Virus record (IMG/VR): IMGVR_UViG_3300024301_000013
Coordinates: 7,758-71,757 of that record
Length of the DNA: 64,000 bases
Reading direction: 5' to 3' (one strand)
From: a virus
Shown: in pieces, positions 1 through 63,700 of the stretch
How positions within the stretch are numbered: position 1 is the stretch's first letter
Layout: each line of letters starts with the position of its first letter
Program-made: the position numbers and the translations under genes
Notes under the pieces: model-generated
What the model saw: only the letters and a program-made list of their open reading frames with translations
What the model was told of the DNA's origin: nothing
Database searches by the model: none

Positions 1-3000
1 GTATCTCTGGTTTAAAGCAAACGAAGAGTGGGTGGACGGCGGAATTAAACTTGTTAATGTATAAATCCGTGTTATAATTAATCCCTTGGCTGTCTTGGTA
101 ATTATCGACTATAGAACAGTTAATAACATATTCAACTTTTATAAAGTCAACAAAAATCCCCTTTTTTAAATTTCTAACCTTTGTCTTAATATTCTTCCAT
201 TGTTCAATATCATCCAGAATGGCAAATATATCGCCGTCCAACACCTTCTGATTAACTGTAAGCAAACTTTTACTATCAAGCCCTAAAAGAAAGTTTTTAA
301 TAAGGGTTTTATTCCTTGTTTTCATCACGTTGTTAATCTTAGACATATCAACTTCACCGATTTCACAAGTAGCAAAAGTAGTTGTAGGACTTAAACTATC
401 TTTATCGTCTTTAGACTTACCTGTATTAACATAATAAACAGTATCACCTAATTCAATATCCAAGTTATTATTAATTAACAATTCCATGTGTACTTGTCTA
501 TTCAGTGGAGCACCGTTTTTATTTGTGCCTTGAATATGTTGCAAATATTCTGCTTTTGTCTTTTTAATCTTTGCCTTGGATGCTATCAATTTAAGATCAA
601 TTCTTTTCTCTTCAATCTTCCGAATATAATCCCAATAAGCGTTAATAAAGTCTAAAGGTTTATTTTGCATCAACTTCACTACTTCTTTTTCAACAAATTG
701 AGTAATATATTCAGATTGTGTTTTCTTAATAATTGCTCCACCGATGATTTCCACTTTATTAGTTACTTCACCTGTCTTTTTATCTTTAGCTTCTTTAAGA
801 TAAATGTAATTACCTTTAGAGAAATTAATTACAGATTCTACAATCTCATCAATATCTAAACCCATAATACCTTTCATATACAAATCATTATATTCAGCTA
901 CGTGAGCTGCAATACCTGTATATTCTTTCCCTTTAGTTACCAACCAGTTAATACCTTTTCCTATATATTGATATTCTAAGTCAGCTGTATTAATTGAAAA
1001 GAATACACCGTCAGTGTGGGCAATAGTAGCGATATAACCTTTCTTAGTAAACCATTTTATCAAATGCCTCAAGTGTTGTCTTCCAGTACAAGTAATACCT
1101 TGAGCCACAACCAAATCAGCAAAAGGAGTTACACCAGCAGCACCCATCATACCATAGAAACTATTGATAAGGATTTTAATAGGTAACTGTCTTACTTCAT
1201 ACTTTTTACTTAAAGACATTTCACCTTTTTCTTTATGCTCATTCATCAACTTCTTATACTTAATCCTAGTGGACCAACCATAATACATAAACAGTTTATA
1301 AACGCCGTACAAATCAATTTTAGGGGAATCAACGTGTACATAGAACTCCGCTGGATACAGTGATGAGAAGTCAGCTTTAAAAGACTTACCGTGGTATCCA
1401 GCTGATAACATAGCTACAAGACCACCTGTAAATTCTCTTGGTTCATCATAATCAGGTACAGCTAAACCATATTGATATGAGTAAGCTGAAAGCAATAGTT
1501 TCCAAACAGATGCACCACCCATAGTTGCAGATCTTTGATAAGAAGTAGGCAACCATTTAGAAATCAAAAAAGTAGCTTGACTATAAAATTCATCTAATTT
1601 ATTTGTTTCCCATAAATCATCAATCAAATACCTTTTAATGATATCTTCACCCGTTGTAATAATGTATTCATTCAAATCCTTTTCAGGGTAGAATAAGTTA
1701 ACATTATTAAGGTTAGACCTCAAATCTTTCAGCTTATTATAAACTTTCTGATAAGTTACAATATCTTCTTTTTCTAACCATTTACCTACAAACTCATTTT
1801 TTCTAAAGCAAAGTTTATCGTAATCTTTAAACTTACTATAAACATTATTAAAGAAACCATCAATATCATCAGGTGTAAACTTCAAAGTATTTACACAAGA
1901 TTCCATAAACATTTTATCATATTCTTCATCCCAAAGATATAAGGTATCTTCATTACCATATACTTGAGTATGTAAAGATTTTCTCTTTACCTTACTTTGC
2001 TCATAAGTATCATTTTCAAATACAATCTCTTTATGGTATTTGAACCAGTCGCCATTATTTACATTCAAATAAAAATCAGCTTTTGAATTCTCAATGTCCC
2101 CGATTTTATTACCTTCTACATAAACACGATTAGGTTTAGCTAATTTGGCGAACTTAATGTTATCTTTAAGTTTGAAGTTAGGGATTGCTTTATTAATAGC
2201 AGCAGCCCTTTTTACCGCAAACATAGTATCACACATATTAATACCTAAGATACTTGTTTGAGTATAACTTTCACTGCTACCACCTACTTTAAGATTACCA
2301 GCCCTCCGATTAAACATTTGATTTTTCGAAATGTAAATTTCTTCGGGGTTTACGTAATATTCTTTCAATAAATCCCTGATACCATTGTAAGTTTGGTATT
2401 CATCTTGGAAATTCTTTAGAATTTCGTAACGTTTAACTATGAAAGGAAAATCAAAGCCTTCGCCGTTATATGTTAAGAACAGGTCAGGGTTTAATTCCAT
2501 TGTCAACTTAAAGAATTCTTCAATTATCTGAAGCTCTTCTTCTTGGTTAGTGGCATTTAATACTTTTTCAAAACCGTTATTACAGTACATACCGATTTTA
2601 AAAATCATACCCATAGTGGGATGAAGAGCAGCATCTTTTCTATGAGAAAATTCAGGTAAACCTTTTGTTTCTATATCCATTGTTAGACTTTTTAACTCTG
2701 GATATTCTTCGAATCCTTTGAATAATCTTTTTCCACTCTGAATCATATATTGTTCAATTGTGGAAATTTTATAAAAGAGACGGTCTTCACCTACAAACAA
2801 ATCAATACCATTTTCTATAAACAAGGCGTTAAGATTTGCAAATCCTTTTTTAGAATCAAAGGAGAATCCATCTTGAATCATCATCATTAACTTTGTATCG
2901 TCAATTTTAAGTTTAAGATGTTTTGCAAATTTATCTGCATGTTGCACCAAGAAATCTAAATCATTGTTTCTAATTTTCTTTTCGTAGAAGTCAAATATTT

Positions 3001-3889
3001 TAGATGCCCTTACATTTTCATTAAAAATGGTAAAGGTTAAATGAATTAATTCTTCGTAATCTATCTCGCTGCTTATTTTAAGAATATCTTGGTCAAGATA
3101 TTGGTTGTCTTCATTATTAGCATCAATGAAAGAAAAGAGAAATGGTTTAGCTGGAAAACCAAAGAAAAAGAGTAATTTTTGGAAATTAGTTGAAGTTTTC
3201 CAAAACTCTTTTAGTTTTTCAGAATCTAAAAATACACCTGACCTTTTCCATATATCTAAACCACCTTCACGGAAAAAATCAATAAGGTTATTGAAGCTAC
3301 CGTTGATTTTTTTTAATTCACCTCTTTTATTATAACAGAATAGGGGGTTATCGTAATTAGTTTCTTTTTCAGGTGCATTAATATGCACAAGATATTTAAA
3401 CCCGTTTTCCATCCGATCGTATTTATCGGACTCGTTGATATGGGTTATCTGTTCTGTTATTTCAATATTGTATTGCTTCATTTTATTGAAGCAAAGCCTT
3501 CTTCTATCTTTAACATCAGATAGAAAGCGTCTTACAATATATTCGTTTTCATCTTGAGATTTGCTTACTATTTCTAATTGATCTTTAATAAGTTCTTGTG
3601 ACTTATTTTCATAAAAGATAGAATTAGTTTCTTCATTGTAATCGGTGTGGTGGACGGCGAAATATTCCCAAAGAAAATCTCTATCAAAATCAAAACCCTT
3701 AAACCACATAAAAGGTCTAAAAGTATCTTTCTTGATCGTAACATCTTCATCATTTTGTTTACGGACGAATATTTTTACTTCATTCGAAAAATTATTAGAA
3801 TCAATGTAACGTATGCCTTCTTCAGGGTCAAACCCGTGTAGTAACGATTCAATATCTTCGATTTTTAATCTTTTTAAATCTCCTTTCAT
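1..3889 (-). CDS. polB: Family B DNA polymerase (T4 gp43-like), 3' end beyond window, >1290 aa
   Basis: Manual translation from ATG 3889 (MKGDLKRLKIEDIESLLHGFDPEEG); same frame confirmed at ExoI MDIETKG (~2680), ExoII TYNGEGFDFPF, ExoIII RYLIDDLWET, motif A DFSSLYP (~1372), motif B KILINSFYG (~1165), motif C HTDG (1007-1018) and at the left edge. Not in the ORF track because it has no stop in the window. Confidence 0.95.
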   Translation of the reverse strand, partial: MKGDLKRLKIEDIESLLHGFDPEEGIRYIDSNNFSNEVKIFVRKQNDEDVTIKKDTFRPFMWFKGFDFDRDFLWEYFAVHHTDYNEETNSIFYENKSQELIKDQLEIVSKSQDENEYIVRRFLSDVKDRRRLCFNKMKQYNIEITEQITHINESDKYDRMENGFKYLVHINAPEKETNYDNPLFCYNKRGELKKINGSFNNLIDFFREGGLDIWKRSGVFLDSEKLKEFWKTSTNFQKLLFFFGFPAKPFLFSFIDANNEDNQYLDQDILKISSEIDYEELIHLTFTIFNENVRASKIFDFYEKKIRNNDLDFLVQHADKFAKHLKLKIDDTKLMMMIQDGFSFDSKKGFANLNALFIENGIDLFVGEDRLFYKISTIEQYMIQSGKRLFKGFEEYPELKSLTMDIETKGLPEFSHRKDAALHPTMGMIFKIGMYCNNGFEKVLNATNQEEELQIIEEFFKLTMELNPDLFLTYNGEGFDFPFIVKRYEILKNFQDEYQTYNGIRDLLKEYYVNPEEIYISKNQMFNRRAGNLKVGGSSESYTQTSILGINMCDTMFAVKRAAAINKAIPNFKLKDNIKFAKLAKPNRVYVEGNKIGDIENSKADFYLNVNNGDWFKYHKEIVFENDTYEQSKVKRKSLHTQVYGNEDTLYLWDEEYDKMFMESCVNTLKFTPDDIDGFFNNVYSKFKDYDKLCFRKNEFVGKWLEKEDIVTYQKVYNKLKDLRSNLNNVNLFYPEKDLNEYIITTGEDIIKRYLIDDLWETNKLDEFYSQATFLISKWLPTSYQRSATMGGASVWKLLLSAYSYQYGLAVPDYDEPREFTGGLVAMLSAGYHGKSFKADFSSLYPAEFYVHVDSPKIDLYGVYKLFMYYGWSTRIKYKKLMNEHKEKGEMSLSKKYEVRQLPIKILINSFYGMMGAAGVTPFADLVVAQGITCTGRQHLRHLIKWFTKKGYIATIAHTDGVFFSINTADLEYQYIGKGINWLVTKGKEYTGIAAHVAEYNDLYMKGIMGLDIDEIVESVINFSKGNYIYLKEAKDKKTGEVTNKVEIIGGAIIKKTQSEYITQFVEKEVVKLMQNKPLDFINAYWDYIRKIEEKRIDLKLIASKAKIKKTKAEYLQHIQGTNKNGAPLNRQVHMELLINNNLDIELGDTVYYVNTGKSKDDKDSLSPTTTFATCEIGEVDMSKINNVMKTRNKTLIKNFLLGLDSKSLLTVNQKVLDGDIFAILDDIEQWKNIKTKVRNLKKGIFVDFIKVEYVINCSIVDNYQDSQGINYNTDLYINKFNSAVHPLFVCFKPEI

Positions 3890-3939: not shown

Positions 3940-3944
3940 CTATT

Positions 3945-4309: not shown

Positions 4310-5956
4310 TTAAGAGTTGTATATATCGTAATTACATTTTATTACTTGATAATCCAAAGGGACATCATAAAGACAGAAAGATTTTATCTTCCCAATAAAA
4401 GTACCAGCAAAATTTTCTTCTAAAACACCACAAATATTGTTATCTGTTACAAATTTAAAACAGTTAGTTTTATGTAAGGAGTTTTGAGAATAATCAGGTA
4501 AATTAGGGTTACAACAACCCCCTGTTATATCTTCATCAATATCAACAGAATAATATACTTTCTCAAAATCATCTAATACAAATCTATTTGTAAATTCAAC
4601 GTAATGTGAAGTTTCCTTTGTTTGAATTGAAATAAATCTATCATCTAAGAGTGAGCTATAAAAAGATATTATTTCATCTTTTTGTGTGAAATCAAAATCA
4701 GTAACAGTAAAATAATCAACCCCATTAATTCTAACCCCTTTAAAGAATTGATTTTTCTTTAGATAAAATTGATAATCACAAACTTCATATTCAGTTGGTA
4801 CATCAGTTGGCATTTCTAATAAACCTTGAGTTCCGCCACCAATACTGATATTGTAAGGCACACCTAATTGTTTAGAAGGTAAATCATCAAAAGGTTCAGG
4901 TACAATGTTAGGGAAATTATATTCCCTCAATTTCAAAAAGCCATCAACGTATATGCTTAATGTACCAAAAGATTGTTCTTTGGGTTTACATATATGTGGG
5001 TTATCGCTTTGAAATTTAATTGTAACTAAATGATAATTTTCGTCTGTAAATATATTTTCAGTACTATATTTTTCAAATATTAATAAGTCTTCTTCAAATT
5101 TACCATCAACACAAGTACCTGAAGTTGCAAGGTATCTATATCCTATTTTACCTTCATCTGTTATTCTAAAGGCTAAGGCGTTGTATTTTAAGTTATCACA
5201 ACAATCAGGAAGTGTAAAAGTTACTCCAGTTGCATTCAAATAGAAATCACTTAGACTAGGGCAATTAAAAAATAAAAAAGGTGAAGTATCGCTTGGTGGC
5301 TTTATATGTGAAGTTTCTTCTATAATAGAGTTTAAGAATGTTACACCGCTAGATACTTCGTAGGATAAGATATGTTCTTTAAGGGAGCAGAACTTATTTT
5401 CAGCTCTTGTTCCATAGTAATAGAATATACCTTCGTTATTAGGATAAGTTTCATTTAGAGTGGGTAATTCAGAGTCACAAGTACATCCGCTTTTAGCCAA
5501 ATAGAATTCAGCAGTCCAACCGTCCACAAAATGCTCTGGGAGCGTTTGGTACTCATAACCTTCTAACTTATAGAAGCCCTGATAGAAACCCCCGCACAAC
5601 TGAACTGTGGAGCCACTAAGCACATCGTAGCAAAAGTTTTCGCCGTCCACCTGCTTAACAAAAAATCTCTTTTCGCCGTCCAACCCCCAATCAGAATCAA
5701 TACTATCAGAAAATCTATTATCATAACCTGTAATACCAAAATTAGGTATGGTAACACCACTAGCAGATATAGCACCAATCCATTCATTATCGACATATAC
5801 AGTCCCCAATGAATTGAAGTTCATACAAATAATTGGTTCTACTACATCATTACAATTACAAATAGCATCATATTCAGATACCTGTATGTCGTAATAATCT
5901 TTATTAGATAACTTCAAATCTAATAATGTCGCGTATTTTCTATTGATATATGCCAA
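4310..5956 (-). CDS. Putative virion structural protein, LamG/ConA-like segments, Cys-rich
   Basis: Long ORF; YHLVTIKF..GTLSIYVDG and FIGKIKSFCLYDVPL are LamG-like. Start moved to TTG 5956 to avoid overlap with the divergent gene. Confidence 0.55.
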   Translation of the reverse strand: MAYINRKYATLLDLKLSNKDYYDIQVSEYDAICNCNDVVEPIICMNFNSLGTVYVDNEWIGAISASGVTIPNFGITGYDNRFSDSIDSDWGLDGEKRFFVKQVDGENFCYDVLSGSTVQLCGGFYQGFYKLEGYEYQTLPEHFVDGWTAEFYLAKSGCTCDSELPTLNETYPNNEGIFYYYGTRAENKFCSLKEHILSYEVSSGVTFLNSIIEETSHIKPPSDTSPFLFFNCPSLSDFYLNATGVTFTLPDCCDNLKYNALAFRITDEGKIGYRYLATSGTCVDGKFEEDLLIFEKYSTENIFTDENYHLVTIKFQSDNPHICKPKEQSFGTLSIYVDGFLKLREYNFPNIVPEPFDDLPSKQLGVPYNISIGGGTQGLLEMPTDVPTEYEVCDYQFYLKKNQFFKGVRINGVDYFTVTDFDFTQKDEIISFYSSLLDDRFISIQTKETSHYVEFTNRFVLDDFEKVYYSVDIDEDITGGCCNPNLPDYSQNSLHKTNCFKFVTDNNICGVLEENFAGTFIGKIKSFCLYDVPLDYQVIKCNYDIYNS

Positions 5957-8555: not shown

Positions 8556-9081
8556 TATCCGTAACATCTGATTCTAATAGGTCATACCATTCTCCATTTA
8601 TTTTTTTGAGTTTAAAAATCGAGTGAAACAATCTTTCTAATTTTTTTGAGTCATCTACTGGAAATATATCTACAAAATACCAATCAAAAGGCAATTTAAC
8701 ATTAAAGATAGCATTTCTATTATCAATATTATTTGTTCTACCTATTTTGTAACCTAGATTTGACTTTATAATATACAGGAATTCTTTTTCCTTGTTTGAT
8801 ATATTAATATTAAGATTTAAGTTGTTAATCTCTTCTTGATATTTTAATTTATACAATTGGTTGTCGGATATAAAAATCCAGCAGCCAATTGTTTTAAACG
8901 CCAAAACTTCCTTTTCTATTTCGCCGTCCAACTCAAAATCAAACTCACTATAGGAATACTTAAACATTGCATTCCAAAGTACAGTGAATTCACCTATACA
9001 ATTTTTACTAAAATTTCTTTTACTAAAATACTGATAAGTAAAGCCGTTTGATAATAGAAATTTTTGAGTTATATTTTGCAA
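8521..9081 (-). CDS. GIY-YIG nuclease, T5orf172/MUG113-like
   Basis: FLYIIK..YKIGRT..R..LERLFH..F...INGEWY signature. Confidence 0.8.
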   Translation of the reverse strand: MQNITQKFLLSNGFTYQYFSKRNFSKNCIGEFTVLWNAMFKYSYSEFDFELDGEIEKEVLAFKTIGCWIFISDNQLYKLKYQEEINNLNLNINISNKEKEFLYIIKSNLGYKIGRTNNIDNRNAIFNVKLPFDWYFVDIFPVDDSKKLERLFHSIFKLKKINGEWYDLLESDVTDIKHFLQTPYSP

Positions 9082-9111: not shown

Positions 9112-10251
9112 ATGTCAGGAAATATAAAGAAAATTTTAGTATTACTTCTAAACGATCCTAGTTCAGGTATTAACAAATATAGAATATCTGATCCACACAT
9201 TAAGTTACAGAGCCTTTTTAAAGACGAGTTTTATATTGAAATAGCTGAAGATAGGGAACTTCTAAATATAGAAAGAGTAAAAAAATTTGACGCTATTTTT
9301 TACCATTCTGTTATTGAACAGATTGATGTGATAGCGAATCAAACAGCTTTGATAAAAAGCATGGGTATAAAATTAATTGTTGATATTGACGATTATTTTG
9401 AATATCATGCTTTACATCCTTACTATAGAATAGCCAAGCAAATTAATTTGAGGGACAAGACTTTGAATGCTATTAGAAAAGCTGATTTAGTAACTACCAC
9501 TTCCGAATTTTTCGTTGAAGTATTAAAGAAATTCAATAAAAATGTAGTTTCAATCCCCAATTCTATAAACTTTAAAGAAAAACAGAATCAAATCAATAAC
9601 ATTCCACATGAAACGGTAAATATTGGTTATGTGGCTGGGTCTTCGCATTTAGAGGATATTAAATTATTGAGGGGAGTTATGTCTTCGACCTTAAATAAGA
9701 ATACACAAATGCACTTATGTGGATTTAACAGTGCTAAGGAAACTGCTTTAAATTCTGTATGGCATAAGATGGAAATTGAATTTACAGATAATTACGCTTT
9801 TAAAGATAACAGGTTTATTGAATATCTACATGAATTTACCCAAGAACCTTATCCATATCAAAGTCAAATGAAGTATAAGCGTGTATGGACTAAACCTATC
9901 AATTCATATTGTCAATCTTATGATGAAATTGATATTGCTTTGGCACCATTACAAGATAATAAGTTTAATTACTATAAAAGTAATTTAAAGATGCTTGAAG
10001 CGGGTGTTAAGAAAAAACCCATTATTGTTAGTGGGGTTCAGCCTTATTTGGACGGCGAACATGGAAAAAATTGTTTAATGGTGGATCCAAAAAAGGAGCA
10101 TAAAAATTGGATGAAGTATATAAAACAGTTGGTTGATTCAGAACAAATGAGGATTGATTTAGGTGAAAACTTACATGAACACGTCTTCAATAACTTCAAC
10201 TTAGAAACAACAACTAAATTACGTGCAGAAATTTATAGAAATATTTTGTAG
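9112..10251 (+). CDS. Glycosyltransferase, GT-B fold
   Basis: VDIDDY, ADLVTTTS, IGYVAGSSH, DIALAPL..NKFN..KSNLKMLE; start taken at ATG 9112. Confidence 0.85.
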   Translation: MSGNIKKILVLLLNDPSSGINKYRISDPHIKLQSLFKDEFYIEIAEDRELLNIERVKKFDAIFYHSVIEQIDVIANQTALIKSMGIKLIVDIDDYFEYHALHPYYRIAKQINLRDKTLNAIRKADLVTTTSEFFVEVLKKFNKNVVSIPNSINFKEKQNQINNIPHETVNIGYVAGSSHLEDIKLLRGVMSSTLNKNTQMHLCGFNSAKETALNSVWHKMEIEFTDNYAFKDNRFIEYLHEFTQEPYPYQSQMKYKRVWTKPINSYCQSYDEIDIALAPLQDNKFNYYKSNLKMLEAGVKKKPIIVSGVQPYLDGEHGKNCLMVDPKKEHKNWMKYIKQLVDSEQMRIDLGENLHEHVFNNFNLETTTKLRAEIYRNIL

Positions 10252-10292: not shown

Positions 10293-11192
10293 ATGATATA
10301 CAAAAACAAAAGTGTCTCTGAATTATCCAATTCTACTGAAGTAAGGGGTTTCTTTGTTGATCAGAAAAAGTATCAACCTATTAAACCTGAAGAATGTATC
10401 TTTTTAGACATTGAAACTGTTGCTAATTATTCCAGTTACGAACAATTATCTCCAGAGCTTCAAAAGAGGTTTGAGATTAAACTAAATAGATGGATTAATT
10501 ACGATGATTCTGCAAAGAGTAAAATTATTGATGCTTTCTTTCAGGAGTTAGAAAAGGAAACTAATTTGATGAATGTGTTGGACGGCGAATCGCTTCTAAA
10601 AATTTATAAAAATCAAAAAGCAATTTCGCCTTCCAAGCGCTACATAGAAGTTGCAGGTCTATACCCAGAGTATGGAAAAATCATTTGTATCAGTATGGGC
10701 TTTATGAAAAACGGTGAATTCCAAACCATTTCTTTTGTAGGCAATGAATTAAAACTTCTAATGAATTTCCAATTCGGTATCACTAAACTGTATGAACGAA
10801 TTTCAAAAGAAAACGATGGAAATGTTTGGGTAGTAGGTCACAATATTAATTTCTTTGATGTTCCTTTTATCACAAAGAGAATGTCTTTGAATGGACTGTT
10901 AACCCCTGCATTCTTACACCAACCTTTCCAACAGCCTTGGAATAAGAGAATTATTGATACTGCAAGTGAATGGAGAGCTGGTAATGCAACTGGTGATGCT
11001 ACTTTAGAAACAATCTCCTTGAGCTTAGGATTTGAAAGTTCAAAATCAGGCAAAGTAAATGGAGAATCTATGGGACAATATTATTATTCCAAAGATTTCG
11101 ACGTTAATGAATTAGTCACTTATTGTGAAAGCGATGTTGTAAACGTTTACAAACTTTTCACTTATCTACAAAACTTAAAACAAGTAAAATAA
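10293..11192 (+). CDS. Stand-alone PolB-like 3'-5' exonuclease (DEDDy)
   Basis: FLDIET, GHNINFFDVPF, YCESDV motifs. Confidence 0.88.
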   Translation: MIYKNKSVSELSNSTEVRGFFVDQKKYQPIKPEECIFLDIETVANYSSYEQLSPELQKRFEIKLNRWINYDDSAKSKIIDAFFQELEKETNLMNVLDGESLLKIYKNQKAISPSKRYIEVAGLYPEYGKIICISMGFMKNGEFQTISFVGNELKLLMNFQFGITKLYERISKENDGNVWVVGHNINFFDVPFITKRMSLNGLLTPAFLHQPFQQPWNKRIIDTASEWRAGNATGDATLETISLSLGFESSKSGKVNGESMGQYYYSKDFDVNELVTYCESDVVNVYKLFTYLQNLKQVK

Positions 11193-14177: not shown

Positions 14178-15704
14178 ATGCTATACTTTTACAGTACAAG
14201 AAAAAAATCAGAAGAAAATAGAAAAAAAATTTTCCATTCTCTAAAATCAGATGTAAAAATCGTTGAATTTGAAAATAACGGTCAATATTCTTTAACACAG
14301 GCTTATAATAAGGCATTAGATATGTGTGAAGAAGATGAGATATTAGTTTTAGCTCATGATGATATAAATTTACCCTCTGGCTGGGATTTAAAAATAAGAG
14401 AATTATTTGAAACAACAGATTATGGTATTATAGGTATGGCTGGTTCAGCTTCTTTACCTAAGAGCGGTGTTTGGTGGGAGAACAGATCAGACTTAGCTGG
14501 TATTGTTTCACATGAAAGAGTAGTAAATGGTAAATTAGTAAAGTACGATTCTGAATTTTCTAGTAACCATGATTTTGTTATGAATGTTTGTGTGTTGGAC
14601 GGCGTTTTTATTGCTCTAAAAAAAGATAGGATAAAAAAACGCTTTAATGAAGACATTAAAGGATTTCATTATTACGATGTTAGTTTTACAGTTGATAATT
14701 TCTTAGAAGGTGTTAAAATAGGTGTTACAACTGCCTTTAAAATTCACCACAAAAGTGTAGGTGAGGTTAACAATTCTTGGCATTATAATAGAAACGTGTT
14801 TACTCAAATGTATGCAGATAAACTACCAATAGAAACTAAACCTATTTTGTCAGAAATAGTAAAAGTAAATCCCGTACAAGTTGCAGCTATATCTGTTGGT
14901 GTAATCATCTTAACAAAAGATAAAATCAATTATCTTACTAAATGTATTGATTCTTTAATAAAGAAAACTAATAAAAATATTTCTTTGAATATCGTTGTTG
15001 GGGATACAGGTTCTTCTGAAGAATCCTTAAAGTCCTTAGATGAGTATTTTAAAACAATAGAAGAAGAGCAACATAAAAATGTTAAATTAACTCTACATAA
15101 ATTAGAGTTTTACAATTTTGCCAAAAATAATAATGAAATAGTAAAAAAATATTTTACAGACGAAGAACTTCTCTTATTTTGCAATAATGATATTCAATTA
15201 ATAAATAATGCCTTAGATTTGATGGTATTAACTTACCAGAAAAATAAGCAGAGATGCGGTACAATTGGGTGTAGATTGCTTTATCCTAATTTGAAAGTTC
15301 AACATGGAGGTATTATTTTGTATGTAGACAAAAATAAACGTTTAGGGGCATCACATTATGGTTTGAAGAGTTATTATTCTTTTAATAGTAGATTATCTTC
15401 TAATATGGTTGGATGTACAGGTGCTTTTTTACTAATGAATAAAAAGTCTTTTGAAAAAGTTAATGGTTTTAATGAAAACACCGTGGAATGTTTTGAAGAC
15501 GTTGTTTTAAATATAGACGCAATAGCTAAACTAGACAAAACAAACTTTTATCAAGGCGACGCTGTTTGTTATCACTATGAATCTTTAACTAGAGATGAAT
15601 CCCCAGATAAATTTGAAAGGATAGGTAAAGATTTTATAAATGTTTTACAGCCAAAAATTTTAGAAAATAAAAATAAATTAAAAAATTATATCGTGATACT
15701 ATGA
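14178..15704 (+). CDS. Double GT2-domain glycosyltransferase
   Basis: N-domain LAHDD, LDGVF, FHYYD; C-domain VIILTKD, GDTGS, FCNND, GCTGAFL, FEDV. Confidence 0.88.
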   Translation: MLYFYSTRKKSEENRKKIFHSLKSDVKIVEFENNGQYSLTQAYNKALDMCEEDEILVLAHDDINLPSGWDLKIRELFETTDYGIIGMAGSASLPKSGVWWENRSDLAGIVSHERVVNGKLVKYDSEFSSNHDFVMNVCVLDGVFIALKKDRIKKRFNEDIKGFHYYDVSFTVDNFLEGVKIGVTTAFKIHHKSVGEVNNSWHYNRNVFTQMYADKLPIETKPILSEIVKVNPVQVAAISVGVIILTKDKINYLTKCIDSLIKKTNKNISLNIVVGDTGSSEESLKSLDEYFKTIEEEQHKNVKLTLHKLEFYNFAKNNNEIVKKYFTDEELLLFCNNDIQLINNALDLMVLTYQKNKQRCGTIGCRLLYPNLKVQHGGIILYVDKNKRLGASHYGLKSYYSFNSRLSSNMVGCTGAFLLMNKKSFEKVNGFNENTVECFEDVVLNIDAIAKLDKTNFYQGDAVCYHYESLTRDESPDKFERIGKDFINVLQPKILENKNKLKNYIVIL

Positions 15705-47400: not shown

Positions 47401-48822
47401 ATGAATAAGAAACAATTAAATAGAGTTACGTTTATTGGAGAGAGTAAGATGGTGGTGGACGGCGAACATACAGTATCAGTTGAAAGAAATGCAGCTGGTA
47501 AGACATACGTCTATGAAAAGAAAGATGGATCAAAGAGAAAATTCGATGATGAAAATCTCCTCTTTGATTACCTAGATGAAATGACAAGCACAGGAAGTGT
47601 TGGTGGAGGTATGGAATTACCATTAGCTACCCCAAAAAACAAAGGTGCTTTTATGCGTAGAACAATCAGCCCTTATACTGATGTTGTTGATGTAAACGAC
47701 TTGGAACTTATGAGTGAAGAGTTAAAAAAGCTGACTACAGAGCTTTTGAAAGAAGAAGCTAAAGCACACCCTAACTATAACCTTATCGAACGTTATAGAA
47801 AGACAAACGGTGAAGGTAGTAAGAAGAACGTCAAAGAAGTTGAAGATAAAATTAATATTGTTTATCAAGATATACTTAAAGCAGCAGAACCTAATTACTA
47901 CAATGATAATAACGATTATAATGGTGATGGTATACCGAATCAATTTAAAGAAAATAACACTAATTTAGATTTGATGTATGACGGTATTACTGATGAGTTT
48001 AAAGAAAGAATTACAAAAGAACTTTCAAAAGATCCAACTGGTGTTAAGTTAATGCAAGCCGCATTGGCGAAAGCAAAAGTTAAAGAACAGAATCCAACAA
48101 ATACCAATTTATTCCAATTAGGTTCAGATATTGAAACTCTAAAAGTAGGTATCAAGGATGCAGATGTAATTAAAAACCCTAAAGGACACGCTAGACATGG
48201 TGTAGCAGCTCTTGGATTTAAAATAAATGAAGGTAAAATGGTAAGATTTAACTTTAATTCAGAAAAATACGATTTTGAACATAATAAAAAACAATTGGAA
48301 GAGTCTATTCCAAACAAAGTAAAAAACGAAGGTACTCGTTTTGAAATGAAAGATAGCAAAGGTAATTTGTATCTGCTTGAATGGAACAACGGTGAACCAA
48401 CAATCCTTGAACATAGAAACTTGATTGCTGAAGAAAAAGCCAATCAAAAATTGAATATGTTATTTGAATATAAGAATTGGGATAAACCTGTAAAATCTAA
48501 AAAAATAGAATTTGATTTCTTCACGAAAAAATCTTTAAATGAAGAAGTTGAAGAGGATGATATGGTTGAATACTTGGTTCCAGAATGGTCTTTGTCTGCT
48601 CTAGTAAATGGTGATTTCTCTGGATTGTCTGATGAAGATGAAGCTAAAATTGAAAAGTTTATAAAAGAAGTAACTAGCCATTATGGTAATGCACATTTCA
48701 TGGTAGGTGATTTGGAAGGCGAAGATAACTTAGGTTTCAAATATAGAAACGATATTGATAATCTAGGGAGCAATGTTTATAGATTGTATATCAAACCTCT
48801 GAAATCGAAAATGGAACAATAA
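47401..48822 (+). CDS. Hypothetical multi-module protein, possibly head-internal
   Basis: Start ATG 47401; several L/I-x-E sites between modules. Confidence 0.65.
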   Translation: MNKKQLNRVTFIGESKMVVDGEHTVSVERNAAGKTYVYEKKDGSKRKFDDENLLFDYLDEMTSTGSVGGGMELPLATPKNKGAFMRRTISPYTDVVDVNDLELMSEELKKLTTELLKEEAKAHPNYNLIERYRKTNGEGSKKNVKEVEDKINIVYQDILKAAEPNYYNDNNDYNGDGIPNQFKENNTNLDLMYDGITDEFKERITKELSKDPTGVKLMQAALAKAKVKEQNPTNTNLFQLGSDIETLKVGIKDADVIKNPKGHARHGVAALGFKINEGKMVRFNFNSEKYDFEHNKKQLEESIPNKVKNEGTRFEMKDSKGNLYLLEWNNGEPTILEHRNLIAEEKANQKLNMLFEYKNWDKPVKSKKIEFDFFTKKSLNEEVEEDDMVEYLVPEWSLSALVNGDFSGLSDEDEAKIEKFIKEVTSHYGNAHFMVGDLEGEDNLGFKYRNDIDNLGSNVYRLYIKPLKSKMEQ

Positions 48823-54093: not shown

Positions 54094-54543
54094 ATGGTAA
54101 AAAAACTAGCAGGCTTATTAGCCACGATTTTATTAGTAGGTTGCTTTTCGCCGTCCACCCCAAAAACAGAAAATCCCTCCTTAGTAAACTTCAAAGGTCA
54201 GGTTTACTCAAGTAGCCAAGGGTTAAAAAAATATGGTGATGATGTTCAACATATAGATGAAGCAGAAAGCCTAATTTATGTTTCAGATTCTACTATATAT
54301 GTCAAACTACCATATAATCTGTTAGCCTTTTCAAGTTTAAATAAAGAAGAATATGAAGGCTTGGTTGTAAAGCAGCAACTATACAAAATAGATAGTTTAA
54401 GCGATATAACAGAAAAGGTTTATCGTAATAATGCTTATCTGTTAATATCTGAAAAAGGTCATTCGACCCCTAACCCAAATACTACAATTTCTTTGTCTAT
54501 CCCAGATACAACCTATTTCTTTTACGATTGCGTAAAAAAATAA
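54094..54543 (+). CDS. Putative lipoprotein
   Basis: MVKKLAGLLATILLVG-C lipobox. Confidence 0.7.
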   Translation: MVKKLAGLLATILLVGCFSPSTPKTENPSLVNFKGQVYSSSQGLKKYGDDVQHIDEAESLIYVSDSTIYVKLPYNLLAFSSLNKEEYEGLVVKQQLYKIDSLSDITEKVYRNNAYLLISEKGHSTPNPNTTISLSIPDTTYFFYDCVKK

Positions 54544-55508: not shown

Positions 55509-56378
55509 ATGAAATTACCAGATAACTACGAGGATTTAATAAAATCAATGCCTTTAGACCTGAAGGAATTGTTATTTAAGCAATGGGGTGCAAAACAGAA
55601 TCCAAAATACCATCCAGAGGGTAACACCTTGAAACATATAATCTATGTTTTAAGAAGGGCTTACAGGGATTACCCTGATGAGCCCAATGTTATTTTAGCT
55701 GCATTATTCCACGACTTAGGTAAAATGGATACCTACGAAATTAGTCCTAAAACAGGTCAACCAACGGCTTACAAACATGAAAAGGTTTCAGCTGAAATAG
55801 TTGATAAATTTGCTTCTTGGATTAATTCTTTTGAGGATACCGATGCGGATGAAGTAAACTATTTGGTTCGTAACCACATGTTAATGAAGCCTGAAACTTG
55901 GGGCCAAATGAAGGACAAGAAAAAGAAAGTGGTAACAGATGATCCAGCGTTTTCTAAGTTAGAAAAATTTGCTAAGATTGATAAGGGAGGTGTTGATGAG
56001 AGCATGCACTTTTCGCCGTCCAAAGAAATAACCCTCACAGAACGCTCTGTAATAGAGAATTTAATTGAGTATTGTAATATGATGCAAGATGAGGTAGAAG
56101 TCCTCACAGAAGCAGAATATAAAGGAAAGAAGGTATCTCTAAACAAACCTATGAGAGGAGATGTAAAGAAATACAAGGTTTATGTGAAGAACCCTAAAAC
56201 AGGAAAGATTATCAAGGTTAATTTCGGGGATAAAAATATGGAAATCAGAAGAGACAACCCCAAAAGAAGAAAGAGCTTTAGAGCAAGACATAAGTGCGAT
56301 ACTAGAAAAGATAAAACAACTGCAAGCTATTGGAGTTGCAAATTTTGGAGTTCAAAACCTGTTAGTGACTTATTATGA
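55509..56378 (+). CDS. HD phosphohydrolase fused to a basic phage domain
   Basis: QNPKYHPEG..H, AALFHDLGK, HEKVSA, NHM; C-terminal KKYKVYV..VNFGD..RRKSFRARH.C..YWSC. Confidence 0.8.
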   Translation: MKLPDNYEDLIKSMPLDLKELLFKQWGAKQNPKYHPEGNTLKHIIYVLRRAYRDYPDEPNVILAALFHDLGKMDTYEISPKTGQPTAYKHEKVSAEIVDKFASWINSFEDTDADEVNYLVRNHMLMKPETWGQMKDKKKKVVTDDPAFSKLEKFAKIDKGGVDESMHFSPSKEITLTERSVIENLIEYCNMMQDEVEVLTEAEYKGKKVSLNKPMRGDVKKYKVYVKNPKTGKIIKVNFGDKNMEIRRDNPKRRKSFRARHKCDTRKDKTTASYWSCKFWSSKPVSDLL

Positions 56379-57209: not shown

Positions 57210-58163
57210 ATGAAAGATACAAAATTACTATTCGAAGCCATTAGTGGTAGCATCAGTTACAATACTGATATTCAAACATCAGATATTGACAAGAAATTCG
57301 TTTACGCTCAACATCCTGAAGAAGTCCTTGGATTCAACTATGTCGAACAGATGAATGTTGATAAGGATACTACGGGGTATGAGGTACGTCGTTTCTTGGA
57401 GCAATTGGAAAAAGGTAATCCCAACTTGCTTGAGCTTTTATTTACTAGCGACAACTTTATTTTACACATGGATCCTGCTTTCAAATTACTGATTGAGAAC
57501 AGGGATAGATTTCTTACAAAGAAAATTAAAAATTCTTTCTTAGGTTTCGCAGTCCAAAACCTAAAAAAACCTAACGTATCTAATATAATAGATAATGCTC
57601 TAAACTCTGCTTATGTTATTACAGAAAAGAATTCAGAGAAAATACCCTTTTTAAATCTATTAGATGGCGGCAAATATGCTTTAGAAAACTTTGGTATTGT
57701 AAAATCCGAATCAATCCATCCTTATCATACAAAGATATACAATATATACTTCAAAAAAACGAAGATGTATAAAGGTTTTTTTGATAGTGATGGGAAGATT
57801 ATTGAGTCTTATATACCTTTAGGTGAAAAACCTTTGGGGGTAATTCATTTATCTAATAATAGGGTTGTAATAGACAATGATGGATATTTGGTAAACGGGA
57901 AATATATTATGCACTCTAAACGCCTTTTAGATATGGTAGATGAGATGTTAAATAAAGGTGAGTTTTCTGTTTACAGAGAGAATAGAGATGAATTATTAGA
58001 TATACGATTTGGTAATTTTCATGTTGATAAATTAATTAATCAATTGGAAAAGCAGATTAAGAGGTTGGACGGCGAATTCGAGAGGGCTAATCTTCCAGAA
58101 GTAGTAGATAAAGAATTTTTACATAAAATCCTTATACAAATAAGAAATAATATAAATTGGTAA
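57210..58163 (+). CDS. Pol-beta superfamily nucleotidyltransferase (YcgL/RlaP-like)
   Basis: SGSISY..TSDID, YEVRRF..GNPNLLELLF, H..RLL, LLDIR.G. Confidence 0.8.
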   Translation: MKDTKLLFEAISGSISYNTDIQTSDIDKKFVYAQHPEEVLGFNYVEQMNVDKDTTGYEVRRFLEQLEKGNPNLLELLFTSDNFILHMDPAFKLLIENRDRFLTKKIKNSFLGFAVQNLKKPNVSNIIDNALNSAYVITEKNSEKIPFLNLLDGGKYALENFGIVKSESIHPYHTKIYNIYFKKTKMYKGFFDSDGKIIESYIPLGEKPLGVIHLSNNRVVIDNDGYLVNGKYIMHSKRLLDMVDEMLNKGEFSVYRENRDELLDIRFGNFHVDKLINQLEKQIKRLDGEFERANLPEVVDKEFLHKILIQIRNNINW

Positions 58164-58166: not shown

Positions 58167-58982
58167 ATGGATCACAAAGCATTAAGGTACAATCTAGGGA
58201 AACTAAGATATGACTTAGTTAGCCCACAAGCCTATGAAGGTCTTGTTAGGGTTATGACAAAGGGTGCAGAAAAATATGAGCCCCGTAACTGGGAAAGAGG
58301 ATTCTCTTGGAGCTCCGTTTTAGCATCTTTAAAAAGACATTTAGCAGCTTATGAATCAGGTGAAGATTACGACCCTGAAACAGGTGAACTACACATTGAT
58401 CACCTTCAAGCTAACGCACATTTTTTAAGCGCATTTTATCATATCTATCCTCAAGGGGATGATAGACGCGCTTGGTACAAATTACCCTTTAAAAGGGTTT
58501 ATTGTGATTTGGACGGCGTATTGGCTGATTTTGAAAAACACTTTCTAAGTTATCTTAAATTAGATTTAGATTCCCCTACGGATTGGAATGACCCTCGTTT
58601 CAGGGATAACTTTGCTAAAATTGCTAACGACGATGAATTTTGGCTCACGCTACCAACAATTATTGACCCTTCGGAAATATCATATCCTATATCTGGATAT
58701 GTAACGTCACGACCATGCAGCGATGAAGTAATTCAAAAATGGCTTGATGTTAATGGATTCCCAAAGGTTCAAATGATTAATGTTAATGGCGATAAAAAAT
58801 CAATTGTTTTAAAGGATATTTGTGATGTCTTCATTGATGACTCCATTTATAATTTTATTGATTGCCATTCTAACGGTATTACTTGTTTCTTAATGACCAG
58901 ACCACATAATCAAAAGTATGAAGTGGGACATTACAGAGTGAATAACTTCAGCGAATTTCTAAAAAAACTTAAACATGGATAA
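58167..58982 (+). CDS. dATP/dGTP diphosphohydrolase (DUF5664-like) fused to HAD 5'-nucleotidase
   Basis: GKLRYDL..GAEKY..RNWERG..RH..DPETGELH..H; then DLDGVLADF, VTSR, FIDD. Confidence 0.85.
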   Translation: MDHKALRYNLGKLRYDLVSPQAYEGLVRVMTKGAEKYEPRNWERGFSWSSVLASLKRHLAAYESGEDYDPETGELHIDHLQANAHFLSAFYHIYPQGDDRRAWYKLPFKRVYCDLDGVLADFEKHFLSYLKLDLDSPTDWNDPRFRDNFAKIANDDEFWLTLPTIIDPSEISYPISGYVTSRPCSDEVIQKWLDVNGFPKVQMINVNGDKKSIVLKDICDVFIDDSIYNFIDCHSNGITCFLMTRPHNQKYEVGHYRVNNFSEFLKKLKHG

Positions 58983-59205: not shown

Positions 59206-59220
59206 ACTTTTCGCCGTCCA

Positions 59221-59860: not shown

Positions 59861-59870
59861 AAAAAATATA

Positions 59871-60439: not shown

Positions 60440-60461
60440 CATAACAAAATTAAATACATTT

Positions 60462-60707
60462 ATGAAAAAAAATGAATTGAAAAAGGGCTTGGAAACAATG
60501 CCTTCCGAAACAAAACCAACAAGAACCCGAAAGAAAACAGTTGAAGCACCCGTTACAGAAGCAGAACTCCGATCGGCTGAAATTGTTTACGAAAGAAAAG
60601 GGGATAAGTTCCTCAAAACAACGCAAGAGAGGATTGGAAATTTCGGAAATTATATAGTTGAAAACTATATCCGACCGATTAAGATGATTTTCATCAGTCA
60701 AAAATAG
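60462..60707 (+). CDS. Hypothetical protein
   Basis: ORF between promoter and terminator. Confidence 0.55.
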   Translation: MKKNELKKGLETMPSETKPTRTRKKTVEAPVTEAELRSAEIVYERKGDKFLKTTQERIGNFGNYIVENYIRPIKMIFISQK

Positions 60708-60715
60708 TAAATAAG

Positions 60716-60745
60716 AAAACGGCACATCAATTGATGTGCCGTTTT
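60716..60745. terminator. Bidirectional terminator (perfect 30-bp palindrome)
   Basis: AAAACGGCACATCAATTGATGTGCCGTTTT between convergent genes. Confidence 0.88.
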
Positions 60746-60752
60746 TTATTTG

Positions 60753-63700
60753 TTAGCCTAAACTCATTACGTACCAATTTGTTCCGTCTGAAACCAAAGT
60801 ACAAGATGTTTCATCTGCACCTAATATTGCTGTACCAGCACCAGCGAATTTTACAACATTAGCAGATGCCGATGCAACTGTCGAGCTACTTGTTCTTATA
60901 ATCATAATTTCTCTTCTTATCCAAGCTGTTGCATCTGGTAAAGTTAAAGCAACTGTTCCAGATGCAGTACTTACTCTAATCCAAGTATCGTTGTCTCCTA
61001 CAGTATAAGAAGAAGTACTTACTTGCACCAAAGACCCCCTACCAAAAGAACCACTTGTTTCCAGTTTGTTTTTAGGGTTTGTTTCACCTGCACTTACATT
61101 ACCATGTATAAGTGAAATAGTGGTACCAGTATTACCTATAACAGTGGTATTAGAACCAAGACCTCTACCTTGATGACCTATAACAATTTGATTTGTTTGA
61201 CCTGTTGCAGGTACTCTTGTATCGTGACCAATTAAAATTGAGTTATCTAATCTAGTATTTATAGTACCAGCTGTTATGTAATATCCAGCTAAAAATCCTA
61301 TTGATACATTTAAACTACCGTTTGTATTATTAAAACCTGAAGCAGATCCTTGAAAAACATTCCAATTACCAGTAGTATTTGAATGACCCGCTCCAGCTCC
61401 TACAAATGTATTAGAACCACCAGTAGTATTTGAATAACCAGCTCCAACTCCTTGAAAAACATTTTGACTACCCGATCTATTAGTGTAACCTGCTAGATAA
61501 CCTTGAAAGACATTACTATCTCCATTAGTGTTAAAAAAGCCTGTTAGACTTCCTTGAAATGTATTATAGGAACCACCAGTGTTGTAAAGACCGCTATTAA
61601 ATCCTTGAAATAAATTATTACTTCCAGTTGTAGTATATTTTCCAGCGTCAGTTCCCTGAATTAGGTTAGTACCATTAGAATTAAATATTTGCTGGTAAAT
61701 AGTATTATTTGTGCTAGCTCTAACTACAAATAAAGGACTAGTTGGTGAAATAACTTTTACACTTGCAGTAACAGTACCAGTAAAATTATTTGATGGTGTA
61801 ATTACTAAAGCAGATGTATTAATTGTTATACTATCAAAAGTTATTGTTGTATTAGAAGTAATTGTTTGATCTAAAACTCCTCCAAAAGTAACTGTGATAT
61901 TTTGACCGAATATAAGATTTGTAGTAGTTACTACAACCCTATAAATTTGACCATTTAAAGGTGTAAATGCACTAGTTAAAGCTGCGGTGCTACCAGTAGT
62001 GTGTGTGTATCCACTAGCAAAACTTGTTCCAGTCCAGTTTGTACCTGCACCTGTAGTTAACAGTTCAGATCCAAAAGACGGGGTGTCAAAAGCCGCCGAT
62101 GGATTTTGAAATTCAACCGTACCCACAACATCAAGTCTTGATGATGGTGCATTCGTTCCAATACCCACATTACCGTCATCTCTGATCATCAAAGAGTTGC
62201 TGTTTCCAAGAGCATTATGGAATTGCGCCGTCCACGTTGTCGTTCCACTTGGTTGAGAACCAACCACCGCCAATCTAGCTGTTGATCCTGTTGTACCCAC
62301 ACTTAAGTTACCAGCTAAATAGTTATTTGCTGTACCTGCTCCATAAAGGCCCCAACCAGAACTATTATTCCATTCAATTGATCTCCAGTCAAAAGCAGAT
62401 GTTAGTGTGGGATTTACAATGAGCCCTCTTGTTATTCCATTTGCAGTTCCAGTTTGACTGATTATTGGAGCAACGTTTAATACCCTCAACAAAGCCCCCC
62501 CACTTGACGGTGAAAATGTAGCTCCATAAGAAAAAACGTTGAAGGCACCAGAATTACCGCTAAAACCGTTGTTTGACTCTATGACACTTCCAGCTACCCC
62601 ATATCCCCCCTGTAAAAATAAACTTCTCCCTGTAAATGCAGTGTTATTAATATTGCCGATATTATTTGAAATAACTGCTCCAGATCTTGTTATATTAAAC
62701 ACACTGCTACCCCCAACTTGTAAATCCATTAATAAACTATTTGCATTACTAGCAGTATTTGTTATATTAGCTTTAATGAGAGTAGGTGTACCAGCTGTAT
62801 TCCAAGTACCAGTAATATCAATCACACTTTGATCACCAACACCAACAATATTATAACCAGTTATAAAAACACCTCTTTGTCCTTGTTTAGGATTAATTTG
62901 TAATCTAGCATCAGGGCTAGCAGTTCCAATTCCAATATTTCCGTCATTTCTGATCATCAATGAGTTGCTAAGGCCAAGACTGTCTTGGAATTGAGCTGTC
63001 CAATTTGAATCAGATGTATCAGCACCTCTTACATAAAATTTAGCAAGCGGAGCATCTGTATTAACCCCAATATTCCCATCATCCCTGATCATCAGGGAAT
63101 TGCTTGTACCACCGCTATTATGGAATTGTGCGGTCCATCCCGATGCTGTAATACCAGAACCTATGACATGAAGACGAGCATTAGGAGAATCAGTATTAAC
63201 ACCCAAATTTCCAGCCCCATTCAAACGAAAAAGACTTGCTGTTGTTGTACTTCCAGATGGACTTCGTGCAATATCAAAAAAATCTGCACCAGTTCCACCT
63301 CCAAATCTCCACAACCAAGAAGGAATAGCTGTATTGTCTTGAGATACAGGGCTAAAAGGTTGGTAGTTATGAGAAAATAGCACAACTGAAACACCAGCAT
63401 TTATTCTAAACAAAGAATCAGTACTACCATCAATTCTAATTCCCGCATCAGAAGCGCCACCATTAAATCTGCCTCCTCCATTGACATCTAATTCAAAAGC
63501 TGGAGCAGCTCTTTTGATTCCCAATCTACTATTTGTGTTATCCCAAACAAAATTTGAATTACTTGACTGTGTTTGAGTCCCTGTCCAAAAAGTAACCCTA
63601 CCATTAACTCCGCTTCCGCTTAATGGTGTGACATATTGCAGGGCGGTTCCCCCCGAATTAACGGCAAGCACCTGATTTGCGGTTCCCAAGGTATTAAGCC

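Follow-up and report, generated by a model that had tools for sequence, protein, structure and literature searches.

Why would a low-GC virus genome carry one and the same GC-rich word over and over inside unrelated genes? The question is raised by a 64-kb stretch of DNA (the window), bases 7758-71757 of the 71,757-bp IMG/VR virus record IMGVR_UViG_3300024301_000013 (the record is G000 in the contig comparisons), in which the 9-mer CGCCGTCCA (complement TGGACGGCG) occurs in 32 exact copies, 18 on the + strand and 14 on the - strand, between positions 33 and 62234. An earlier note on this DNA had given the same numbers, and our recount agrees with it, also for the 22 of 32 copies that reach the full 11-mer TTCGCCGTCCA; for the near matches, put there at five or more, we found six further 11-mers in the window with one mismatch in the core and the TT kept. 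The whole 71.8-kb record holds 34 copies of CGCCGTCCA. Dinucleotide-preserving shuffles of the window gave a mean of 0.02 copies with a maximum of 1 (100 shuffles), the same as the chance estimate of about 0.02 made earlier, whereas the GC content, stated there as 28%, was measured at 30.4% for the record. At one mismatch or fewer, 35 matches were present in the window against 0.18 expected. From k=6 to k=12, the top over-represented words of the record were all parts or extensions of CGCCGTCCA, and nearly all of its 37 GCCGTCC heptamers lay inside the word. As set out below, the word is best explained as a strand-specific cis-acting DNA signal.

The word is not a by-product of what the genes encode. 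Crude open reading frame (ORF) calls, which cover 98% of the window, placed 31 of the 32 copies inside ORFs and in four of the six possible frames, so that the description of a genome-wide word inside unrelated genes holds. The readings named in the earlier note were all recovered, with L/V-D-G-E/V in antisense (n = 16), S-P-S-T-like (n = 8) and F-A-V-H/Q-like (n = 6) peptides in sense, W-T-A once, and one intergenic copy. The codons concerned are rare here, as had been claimed: GGC makes up 9% of Gly codons (18 of 111 GGC codons fall within the word), CCG 6% of Pro codons (8 of 43 within the word) and GCC 9% of Ala codons. When synonymous codons were shuffled with the proteins unchanged, 0.085 copies (global pool) or 0.18 copies (within-gene pool) remained on average, with a maximum of 2 copies in any of the 200 runs, compared with 33 observed in ORFs; the enrichment therefore outlives a codon-preserving shuffle, and selection acts on the DNA word, not on the encoded protein. 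This conclusion, already drawn in the earlier note, is backed jointly by the codon shuffle and by the orthologous sites, third-position tail and peptide excess described below. Literature searches for the literal 9-mer and 11-mer returned only unrelated primers and constructs among the matches listed, and concept-level searches returned papers on Chi in phages and on nick motifs, with nothing on the CGCCGTCCA word or on this phage group; we thus found neither the word nor such a phenomenon in T4-like jumbo phages in print. The word matches none of Chi, KOPS, DNA-uptake sequences, HIP1 and matS, in line with the first assessment.

Site conservation was assessed in two related contigs, the 136-kb syntenic IMG/VR contig G001 (about 78% nucleotide identity to the record) and G002 (about 67-69%). 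The word was exact in G001 at 27 of 33 aligned sites, compared with 15.5% of all 9-mers and 20.4% of GC-rich 9-mers (binomial P = 7e-14 against the GC-rich controls), and in G002 at 9 of 10 aligned sites, compared with 5.1% of all and 13% of GC-rich 9-mers (P = 9e-8). Identity around conserved sites was raised at -4 to +9 only (0.93-0.96 vs 0.78) and was at background beyond. The same word recurs at matching sites of contigs that were assembled independently and whose flanking DNA has diverged by 22-33%, which excludes an origin from a library adapter or from the assembly, as considered in the earlier note. In the more distant contig G411 the word is denser (0.74 per kb), and its sites are shared with G000 at 8 of 18, with G001 at 14 of 36 and with G002 at 6 of 12 positions over a background of about 4%; the sites are therefore strongly conserved yet turn over, with density kept or raised. 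The comparison of orthologues that had been suggested for turnover at kept density thus came out positive, with many positions conserved and some exchanged. In addition, positions 1-8000 of G001 hold nine consecutive same-strand copies in two very large ORFs (986 and 1620 aa; the one scanned had no family match), and four of the nine align to one G000 stretch, which suggests that the word multiplied with a repeated protein domain.

The word copies of the window are given below by coordinates, strand and location (PolB, family-B DNA polymerase; peptide in brackets), followed by the near matches, each with one core mismatch.

33..41, - strand, sense in the PolB gene (FNSAVHPLF); lost in G001, kept in G002
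232..240, + strand, antisense in PolB (KVLDGDIFA); kept in G001, not in G002
3651..3659, - strand, sense in PolB (EYFAVHHTD); kept in G001 and G002
5641..5649, + strand, antisense (KQVDGENFC), first of a direct pair 33 bp apart; kept in G001 and G002
5674..5682, + strand, antisense (WGLDGEKRF), second of the direct pair with 5641; kept in G001 and G002
8922..8930, + strand, antisense (FELDGEIEK); kept in G001 and G002
10049..10057, - strand, antisense (PYLDGEHGK); kept in G001 and G002
10579..10587, - strand, antisense (NVLDGESLL); not kept in G001
14596..14604, - strand, antisense (CVLDGVFIA); kept in G001 and G002
16915..16923, + strand, sense (VFSPSTTPQ); kept in G001 and G002
17706..17714, + strand, sense (INFAVHSVN); kept in G001 and G002
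21788..21796, - strand, antisense (DLLDGEENG); kept in G001
22350..22358, + strand, sense (HEFAVQFTT); not kept in G001 (4 core differences)
24423..24431, - strand, antisense in a baseplate-wedge-like gene (KQLDGEINN); kept in G001
25018..25026, + strand, sense (LRNAVQQIT); kept in G001
25648..25656, - strand, antisense at the extreme start of an ORF (KGVDGVRYN); not kept in G001
28942..28950, + strand, sense (LNFAVHLFN); kept in G001
31400..31408, + strand, sense (TVTPSTSFN); kept in G001
32295..32303, - strand, antisense (FEVDGVKYK), divergent pair with 32421; kept in G001
32421..32429, + strand, sense (YISPSTTIK), divergent pair with 32295; kept in G001
37075..37083, - strand, antisense (HLLDGVKVL); kept in G001
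38137..38145, + strand, sense (MISPSTSGQ); kept in G001
42116..42124, - strand, antisense in an SbcC-like gene (FELDGEISN); kept in G001
44000..44008, + strand, sense in an SbcC-like gene (DFSPSIKIE); kept in G001
46462..46470, + strand, sense (EVSPSTQPS); region without G001 alignment
47456..47464, - strand, antisense (MVVDGEHTV); kept in G001
54149..54157, + strand, sense (CFSPSTPKT); kept in G001
56014..56022, + strand, sense (HFSPSKEIT); kept in G001
58066..58074, - strand, antisense (KRLDGEFER); kept in G001
58510..58518, - strand, antisense (CDLDGVLAD); not kept in G001
59212..59220, + strand, sole intergenic copy of the window, abutting the ATG at 59221; kept in G001
62226..62234, + strand, antisense frame 0 (TTWTAQFHN), without the 5' TT; not kept in G001
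10625..10635, + strand, near match TTCGCCTTCCA
27335..27345, - strand, near match TTCGCGGTCCA
36724..36734, + strand, near match TTCGCCGTCCC
36905..36915, - strand, near match TTTGCCGTCCA
48713..48723, - strand, near match TTCGCCTTCCA
57546..57556, + strand, near match TTCGCAGTCCA

The element extends beyond the 9-mer. It reads 5'-W-T-T-T-CGCCGTCCA-M-C-N-C-3' and continues on the same strand into a tail of about 25 nt in which C (and also A) is frequent and G and T are scarce. Position by position (123 copies), W stands at -4 and T at -3 to -1, followed by the core, M at +9 (never G), C at +10, N at +11 and C at +12; at position -2, 103 of the 123 copies have T and none has C or G. Beyond +12 there is no conserved sequence, only a compositional bias: over +9 to +33, C falls from 0.45 to 0.22 (range 0.22-0.47) compared with 0.13-0.18 in controls, and G is at 0.05-0.14. 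The bias is present in sense and antisense copies alike and most pronounced at the third position of codons (C 0.33-0.37 vs 0.12, G 0.03-0.04 vs 0.12, T 0.15-0.17 vs 0.35-0.40), and it is therefore a DNA-level feature of the word's strand, not of coding. Core and tail as a single strand were predicted to fold weakly, with a mean minimum free energy of -2.83 kcal/mol compared with -4.17 for random 45-mers and -6.48 for their own complement (RNA parameters), and we infer that the word's strand is read in single-stranded form. Upstream of the core, a search for a G/T-rich left flank gave none, only -4 to -1 being biased, and T-rich. The complement of the element reads 5'-[G/T-rich]-TGGACGGCG-AAA-3'. 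Across four records, 166 exact copies faced 44 copies of all single-mismatch variants together, with the first core base the most tolerant of mismatch.

The word has also altered protein sequences toward LDGE, SPST and FAVH. Places encoding [LMV]-D-G-[ADEGV] were written as the word in 18 of 20 cases in G000, 28 of 32 in G001 and 20 of 25 in G411, and these peptides were themselves in 3-7-fold excess over residue-shuffled proteins (20 vs 3.7 in G000, 32 vs 7.3 in G001 and 25 vs 3.6 in G411). In the polymerase alignment, lineage-specific changes led to word-compatible peptides, namely VEGN to VDGG in G411 and G002, NSTA to NSPST in G411 and EEYDKM to EKLDGE in G002; the DNA word has therefore changed amino acids even in a conserved enzyme.

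Along each strand the copies were spaced more evenly than random (coefficient of variation 0.61-0.75 vs 0.91-0.97), with P values of 0.024, 0.052, 0.035, 0.019, 0.15 and 0.046 in six strand tests and a Fisher P of 0.0018 for G001 and G411 combined, which partly share sites. With both strands pooled, the spacing did not differ significantly from random. The mean per-strand gap was 2.3-4.7 kb, within the range of phage Okazaki fragments. The orientation of copies showed neither runs nor a switch along the records, which are fragments (22-41% complete), and a permuted genome would give no polarity. Positions within genes were uniform, and about 95% of copies lay inside genes; of 130 genic sites, 52 were sense and 78 antisense.

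These properties bear on the possibility that a phage protein which tags or arranges the genome lands on the word in duplex DNA. Candidates would be a terminase reading a packaging self-tag, a protein that condenses or anchors the DNA, or a repressor comparable to those that bind the stoperators of Cluster A mycobacteriophages. Such a protein would account for the high specificity and asymmetry (the ratio of exact to single-mismatch copies given above) and for a genome-wide, position-conserved distribution in both orientations that is absent from the bacterial genomes searched, and self-tags such as DNA uptake sequences (DUS) and uptake signal sequences (USS) also occur in both orientations inside genes. 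It would leave unexplained both the 25-nt one-strand tail at third codon positions and an evenness that appears per strand but not when strands are pooled, and the stoperator variant sits poorly with a word that lies almost always within genes and whose orientation follows transcription only weakly. We regard a duplex landing site as unlikely.

The word is private to one lineage of far-T4-like jumbo phages. A scan of IMG/VR with one 14-mer form returned at least 118 stretches, mostly single chance matches in GC-rich contigs, and among the matches listed the low-GC stretches with several copies all came from this phage group. When relatives were searched for the same word, as the earlier note had proposed, all 12 related low-GC contigs examined carried it, at 0.3-0.74 per kb. 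The 9-mer counts were 67 in 136 kb of G001 (28/39 by strand), 16 in 24 kb of G002, 7 in 13 kb of G003, 3 in 10 kb of G004, 49 in 66 kb of G411 (20/29 by strand), 19 in 47 kb of G412, 13 in 34 kb of G413 and 28 in 40 kb of G414, with the reversed-word control at 0 in each; G004 and the L208 contig are near-duplicates of G000, and G414 is one of G411. A search with the polymerase led to 8 loci (65-100% protein identity), in each of which the word was the top 9-mer, at 0.42-0.66 per kb, and by polymerase identity the clade comprises at least four lineages. The outgroup G410 (98.6 kb, polymerase catalytic region 50% identical) had 0 copies and no comparable word; G410 marks the limit of the outgroup comparison, the lineages at 57-61% PolB identity (P0017 and P0018) lying outside it, and an alignment-based IMG/VR search gave no more distant PolB relatives. 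Variant words, or dialects, were not found in relatives with this one outgroup. There were likewise 0 copies in 40-50 kb of each of Microcystis phage Mel-JY01, Flavobacterium phage immuto, and LR756508 and LR756511, the latter two being huge uncultured phages.

Some of these genomes have words of their own. An apparent motif in Mel-JY01 was rejected as collagen-like tandem repeats in two genes; with the repeat genes excluded, Mel-JY01 (1-50000) shows the dispersed words CCCCCGGG (10 times in 40 kb vs 0.07 expected) and the palindrome ATTCCGGAAT (14 times vs 0.09 expected). In G410, the AT-rich words AAAATCTTTTG (13 times vs 0.3 expected) and TCAAAAGA (65 times vs 7.8) are mildly enriched and may be a promoter-like element.

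Phages of Neisseria, Haemophilus and E. coli carry the DUS, USS or Chi of their hosts, and the word could in the same way be a host genome-wide word (a host Chi, an uptake sequence or another) copied by the phage. However, 401 evenly drawn Bacteroidota genomes held 0-15 copies of the 11-mer each, the same level as the reversed-word control, with the maximum of 15 in G121 (8+7), and the five genomes with the closest relatives of the window's TnpB (four Cytophagales-type, one Phormidium) held 0-4. The Bacteroidota host element hinted at earlier is thus not borne out, and a borrowed host word appears highly improbable.

The carrier itself is, as judged from its sequence, a fragment of a far-T4-like jumbo phage. 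The window encodes PolB, a baseplate wedge protein, a run of RuvC-like, exonuclease, SbcD-like and SbcC-like genes, and a TnpB of the IS605/IS607 type, and G001 adds a Gp23-type major capsid protein, a Gp20-type portal, a UvrD-like superfamily 1 (SF1) helicase, an SNF2-type helicase, a DnaB-like helicase and a 1367-aa protein that joins an N-terminal BT4734_N domain, archaeo-eukaryotic-primase-like (AEP-like), to a helicase domain. The 1367-aa protein had no PDB or PHROG match, and no DnaG- or Toprim-type primase was seen in these incomplete records. CheckV completeness was 22% for the window's record and 41% for G001, which implies a genome of about 330 kb and hence a jumbo phage. The nearest cultured relatives by capsid, Mel-JY01 and immuto, reach only about 40% identity. 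Lysogeny genes were not seen, and the window held no tRNA genes and no Rfam family. Public runs with at least part of the stretch were labelled salt marsh, wastewater, marine, freshwater and riverine (20 rows, 14 studies; two are perhaps the source). Over 24001-44000 of the window, the metatranscriptomic-labelled X15 and X17 gave long contigs of a strain diverged by 3-6%, with word depths of 56-128 (X15) and 1-13 (X17), in which expression is indistinguishable from carried-over DNA.

Several neighbouring genes deserve a description. PolB (2-3901, -) has more than 1300 aa, and its Pfam exonuclease domain begins at residue 396, which leaves an N-terminal part of about 390 aa without a family; its length is about 1360 aa in clade relatives compared with 919-965 aa in the bulk of T4-like relatives. 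At 44349-45575 (+) lies a 408-aa protein without a Pfam or PHROG match (E-value limit 0.001). The TnpB ORF (52685-53908, within 52007-53922) has OrfB_IS605, Cas12f1-like TNB and helix-turn-helix domains and no word copy; the stretch does not align to G001 (the alignment gap is G000 59333-61689), which fits a recent insertion, and G001 has a second TnpB elsewhere (115985-117265). The closest TnpB relatives, at 46-58% identity, were in metagenome-assembled genomes of Cytophagales and in filamentous cyanobacteria, and naming a host through them was rejected because such identities are too distant. Beside the major capsid gene of G001 (123500-125392, -), a 630-aa HNH/homing-endonuclease-like protein (phrog_559, E 2.6e-135) has treble-clef zinc fingers and a GNAT-like part. 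As a reader of the word it was rejected, being absent from the other clade fragments searched and having a partial relative in the word-less G410; it is probably a mobile gene.

Between 55509 and 58982 the window carries predicted nucleotide and RNA-end enzymes, namely a tRNA-nucleotidyltransferase-like protein, a nucleotidyltransferase, and a fusion of a MazG-like dATP/dGTP pyrophosphohydrolase with a polynucleotide-kinase-like part. Nucleotide-metabolism enzymes of this kind, the MazG-like pyrophosphohydrolase and the nucleotidyltransferases included, would suit a word at which bases are modified sequence-specifically, by methylation, glycosylation or in another way, to counter host defences. 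Modification targets, however, do not as a rule show enrichment or conservation of position, and selection for them would not alter proteins; moreover, no DNA methyltransferase turned up among the proteins scanned, which are part of the ORFs. A modification target is therefore, in our estimate, very unlikely, and together with the duplex tag and the borrowed host word it explains less of the evidence than the readings that follow.

A specific, asymmetric core of 13-14 nt, a strand-tied tail that cannot fold, copies on both strands without polarity, even spacing per strand, and lineage specificity with absence from the sampled bacteria together lead us to read the element as the site of a single-strand transaction by the phage's replication or recombination machinery. 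On this basis we propose, at a rough probability of 0.35, that the word is a strand-start signal: at the site, the replication machinery of the phage itself would create a new 3'-OH on the word's strand by way of a nick or a primer. In one version a site-specific nick would be followed by extension, which we consider rather unlikely taken singly; in the other, a sequence-specific primase travelling with a DnaB-like helicase would lay down a primer, a variant we hold to be quite improbable. Directly 3' of the site, the tail, unable to fold, would give a helicase or its loader a single-stranded stretch on which to land or be held. If a primer is made, its first template bases would be those of the T-run 5' of the core, and copies on both strands, each every 2.3-4.7 kb, would offer starts to forks in either direction in a genome assumed to be circularly permuted and recombination-dependent. 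Every enzyme step of this proposal is one that we infer. Machinery that would fit it is encoded in G001, with the DnaB-like helicase and the AEP-like BT4734_N domain fused to a helicase. There are partial precedents for both versions: in the accessible text of PMC3517423 and PMC11780129, conserved 9-nt nick-associated words lie inside Pseudomonas phage genes at about one per 3.5 kb of one strand, and in that of PMC8718748, an AEP primase with an 8-nt recognition site starts at the first base 5' of the site.

Several observations weigh against a strand-start signal. Assembled contigs of four runs over 24001-44000 bridge the sites, with no end pile-ups among the 32 of 198 contig pieces listed (of 907 variant places in the same runs, 40 were listed). 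The ends of 12 clade contigs fell within 300 nt of a site in 7 of 24 cases compared with 16% under the null (P = 0.08), with medians alike. The copies are only modestly even in their spacing, and most sites of G000 and G001 are common to both. The strand split is near equal (18/14, 28/39 and 20/29), whereas the nick words are single-strand as far as the accessible text of the published accounts goes. No reader protein was identified among the proteins scanned. Known primases need only about 3 nt, so that a requirement for 13-14 nt would lack precedent, and packaging of the T4 type tolerates nicks poorly. Finally, the G/T-rich complement 5' of TGGACGGCG fits a Chi-like signal equally well. As an anecdotal observation, single contig ends lie near sites (X3 at 32424 and 38152, X17 at 37098).

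A private Chi-like signal is the main rival, although we rate it too as having a low probability. According to it, a processive helicase-nuclease of phage or host would degrade linear DNA until it met 5'-TGGACGGCGAAA-3' from the 3' side, whereupon the strand would be spared and the G/T-rich 3' tail 5' of the word handed to a recombinase; phage DNA would thus be protected and host DNA not, and recombination-dependent replication would be started. RecA-type recombinases prefer GT-rich DNA, E. coli Chi lies in GT-rich islands, known Chi words are G-rich, and a nuclease stopped at Chi would leave a GT-rich 3' tail for the recombinase, which is the geometry of the complement here: the tail complement is G/T-rich exactly 5' of the G-rich form of the word. 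Both orientations are present, each about once in 3.5-4.7 kb, each strand is spaced more evenly than chance, and near absence from the 406 bacterial genomes searched would suit a self-mark. The run of RuvC-like, exonuclease, SbcD-like and SbcC-like genes in the window and the UvrD-like SF1 helicase of G001 would also be in keeping with it. Host Chi words are enriched in some phages, according to the accessible part of PMC3784561. On the other side, the word has 9-14 nt compared with 5-8 nt for known Chi, and the Chi-like reading assigns no role to the A-run conserved 3' of the word on its G-rich strand. In a scan of about 50 proteins from these incomplete records there was no RecBCD- or AddAB-like reader, only the SF1 helicase, the exonuclease and the SbcCD-like proteins, and T4-type phages are not known to use Chi.

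The strand-start and Chi-like readings can be drawn together in one tentative statement, possible though more probably wrong than right: a private word of about 14 nt would be needed by the replication or recombination machinery, either to begin strands at sequence-specified nicks or primers or to stop a nuclease as a private Chi, and would act as a self/non-self tag written in sequence, for the sake of which selection rewrites amino acids even in the DNA polymerase. Conservation of position, the tail at synonymous sites and the changes in proteins point to an essential, highly specific reader that annotation does not reveal.

Few cases are known in which a DNA-level signal shapes a genome across its genes, and they include Chi, uptake sequences and nick motifs. 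The word in this widespread aquatic and wastewater lineage of T4-like jumbo phages, extrapolated to about 160 copies per genome of about 330 kb and kept at orthologous positions at 67-78% nucleotide identity, is also a handy signature for spotting fragments of the lineage in metagenomes. The nick-associated words (TACT/RTGMC and WACTRTGAC of tf/LUZ24-like phages, and those of phiKMV-like phages and T5) are, in the accessible text of PMC3517423 and PMC11780129, likewise 9-nt, asymmetric, lineage-private, far above chance and mostly in genes, and they recur, about once every 3.5 kb on the strand that bears them, at similar positions in relatives of low DNA identity. In the same text, however, all copies lie on one strand (14/14 in tf, 13/13 in Rembedalsseter) and cluster toward one genome end, whereas those of the jumbo phage lie on both strands over the whole contig; a G-poor tail, present here, is not part of what that text describes. 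The word discussed here belongs to a T4-like jumbo myovirus and not to a podovirus of 45 kb.

Chi (E. coli GCTGGTGG) resembles the word in being over-represented, G-rich, orientation-dependent, read on one strand, present about once per 4-5 kb and set in a GT-rich context. It differs in its length of 5-8 nt, compared with 9-14 nt. The word is enriched in none of the 406 bacterial genomes searched, its counts being at chance level in the 401 Bacteroidota and 5 others, which may not include the host, and it shows no visible replication-linked polarity in the fragments at hand. The DUS of Neisseria and the USS of Pasteurellaceae have 9-12 nt, occur in both orientations and several gene frames at about 0.5-1 per kb, and are conserved in position, the USS also with a one-sided compositional flank; the word has the same layout, with both orientations, location in genes, several frames and about 0.5-1 copy per kb. 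However, DUS and USS belong to naturally competent bacteria and are read by uptake machinery, whereas the carrier of the word is a T4-like phage, as its Gp23 capsid, Gp20 portal and baseplate wedge show. Among primases, that of T7 recognises 5'-GTC-3'. For the NrS-1 PrimPol, the accessible part of PMC8718748 gives 5'-TTTGGTTA-3' and 5'-GTG-3'. Primase sites are strand-specific, are read on a single-stranded template and start synthesis at the first base 5' of the site, and the core contains GTC after the conserved T-run (-3 to -1), with a per-strand spacing in the Okazaki range; known primase sites nevertheless span only 3-8 nt, and they do not form a long exact word that is enriched or conserved throughout a genome. 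The stoperators of Cluster A mycobacteriophages, finally, are dispersed, asymmetric sites of about 13 bp bound by one phage protein; they lie in short intergenic gaps of temperate phages and are oriented with transcription, whereas 31 of the 32 window copies of the word are in ORFs and their orientation is mixed. Collectively, the word resembles these systems as a selected, dispersed recognition word.

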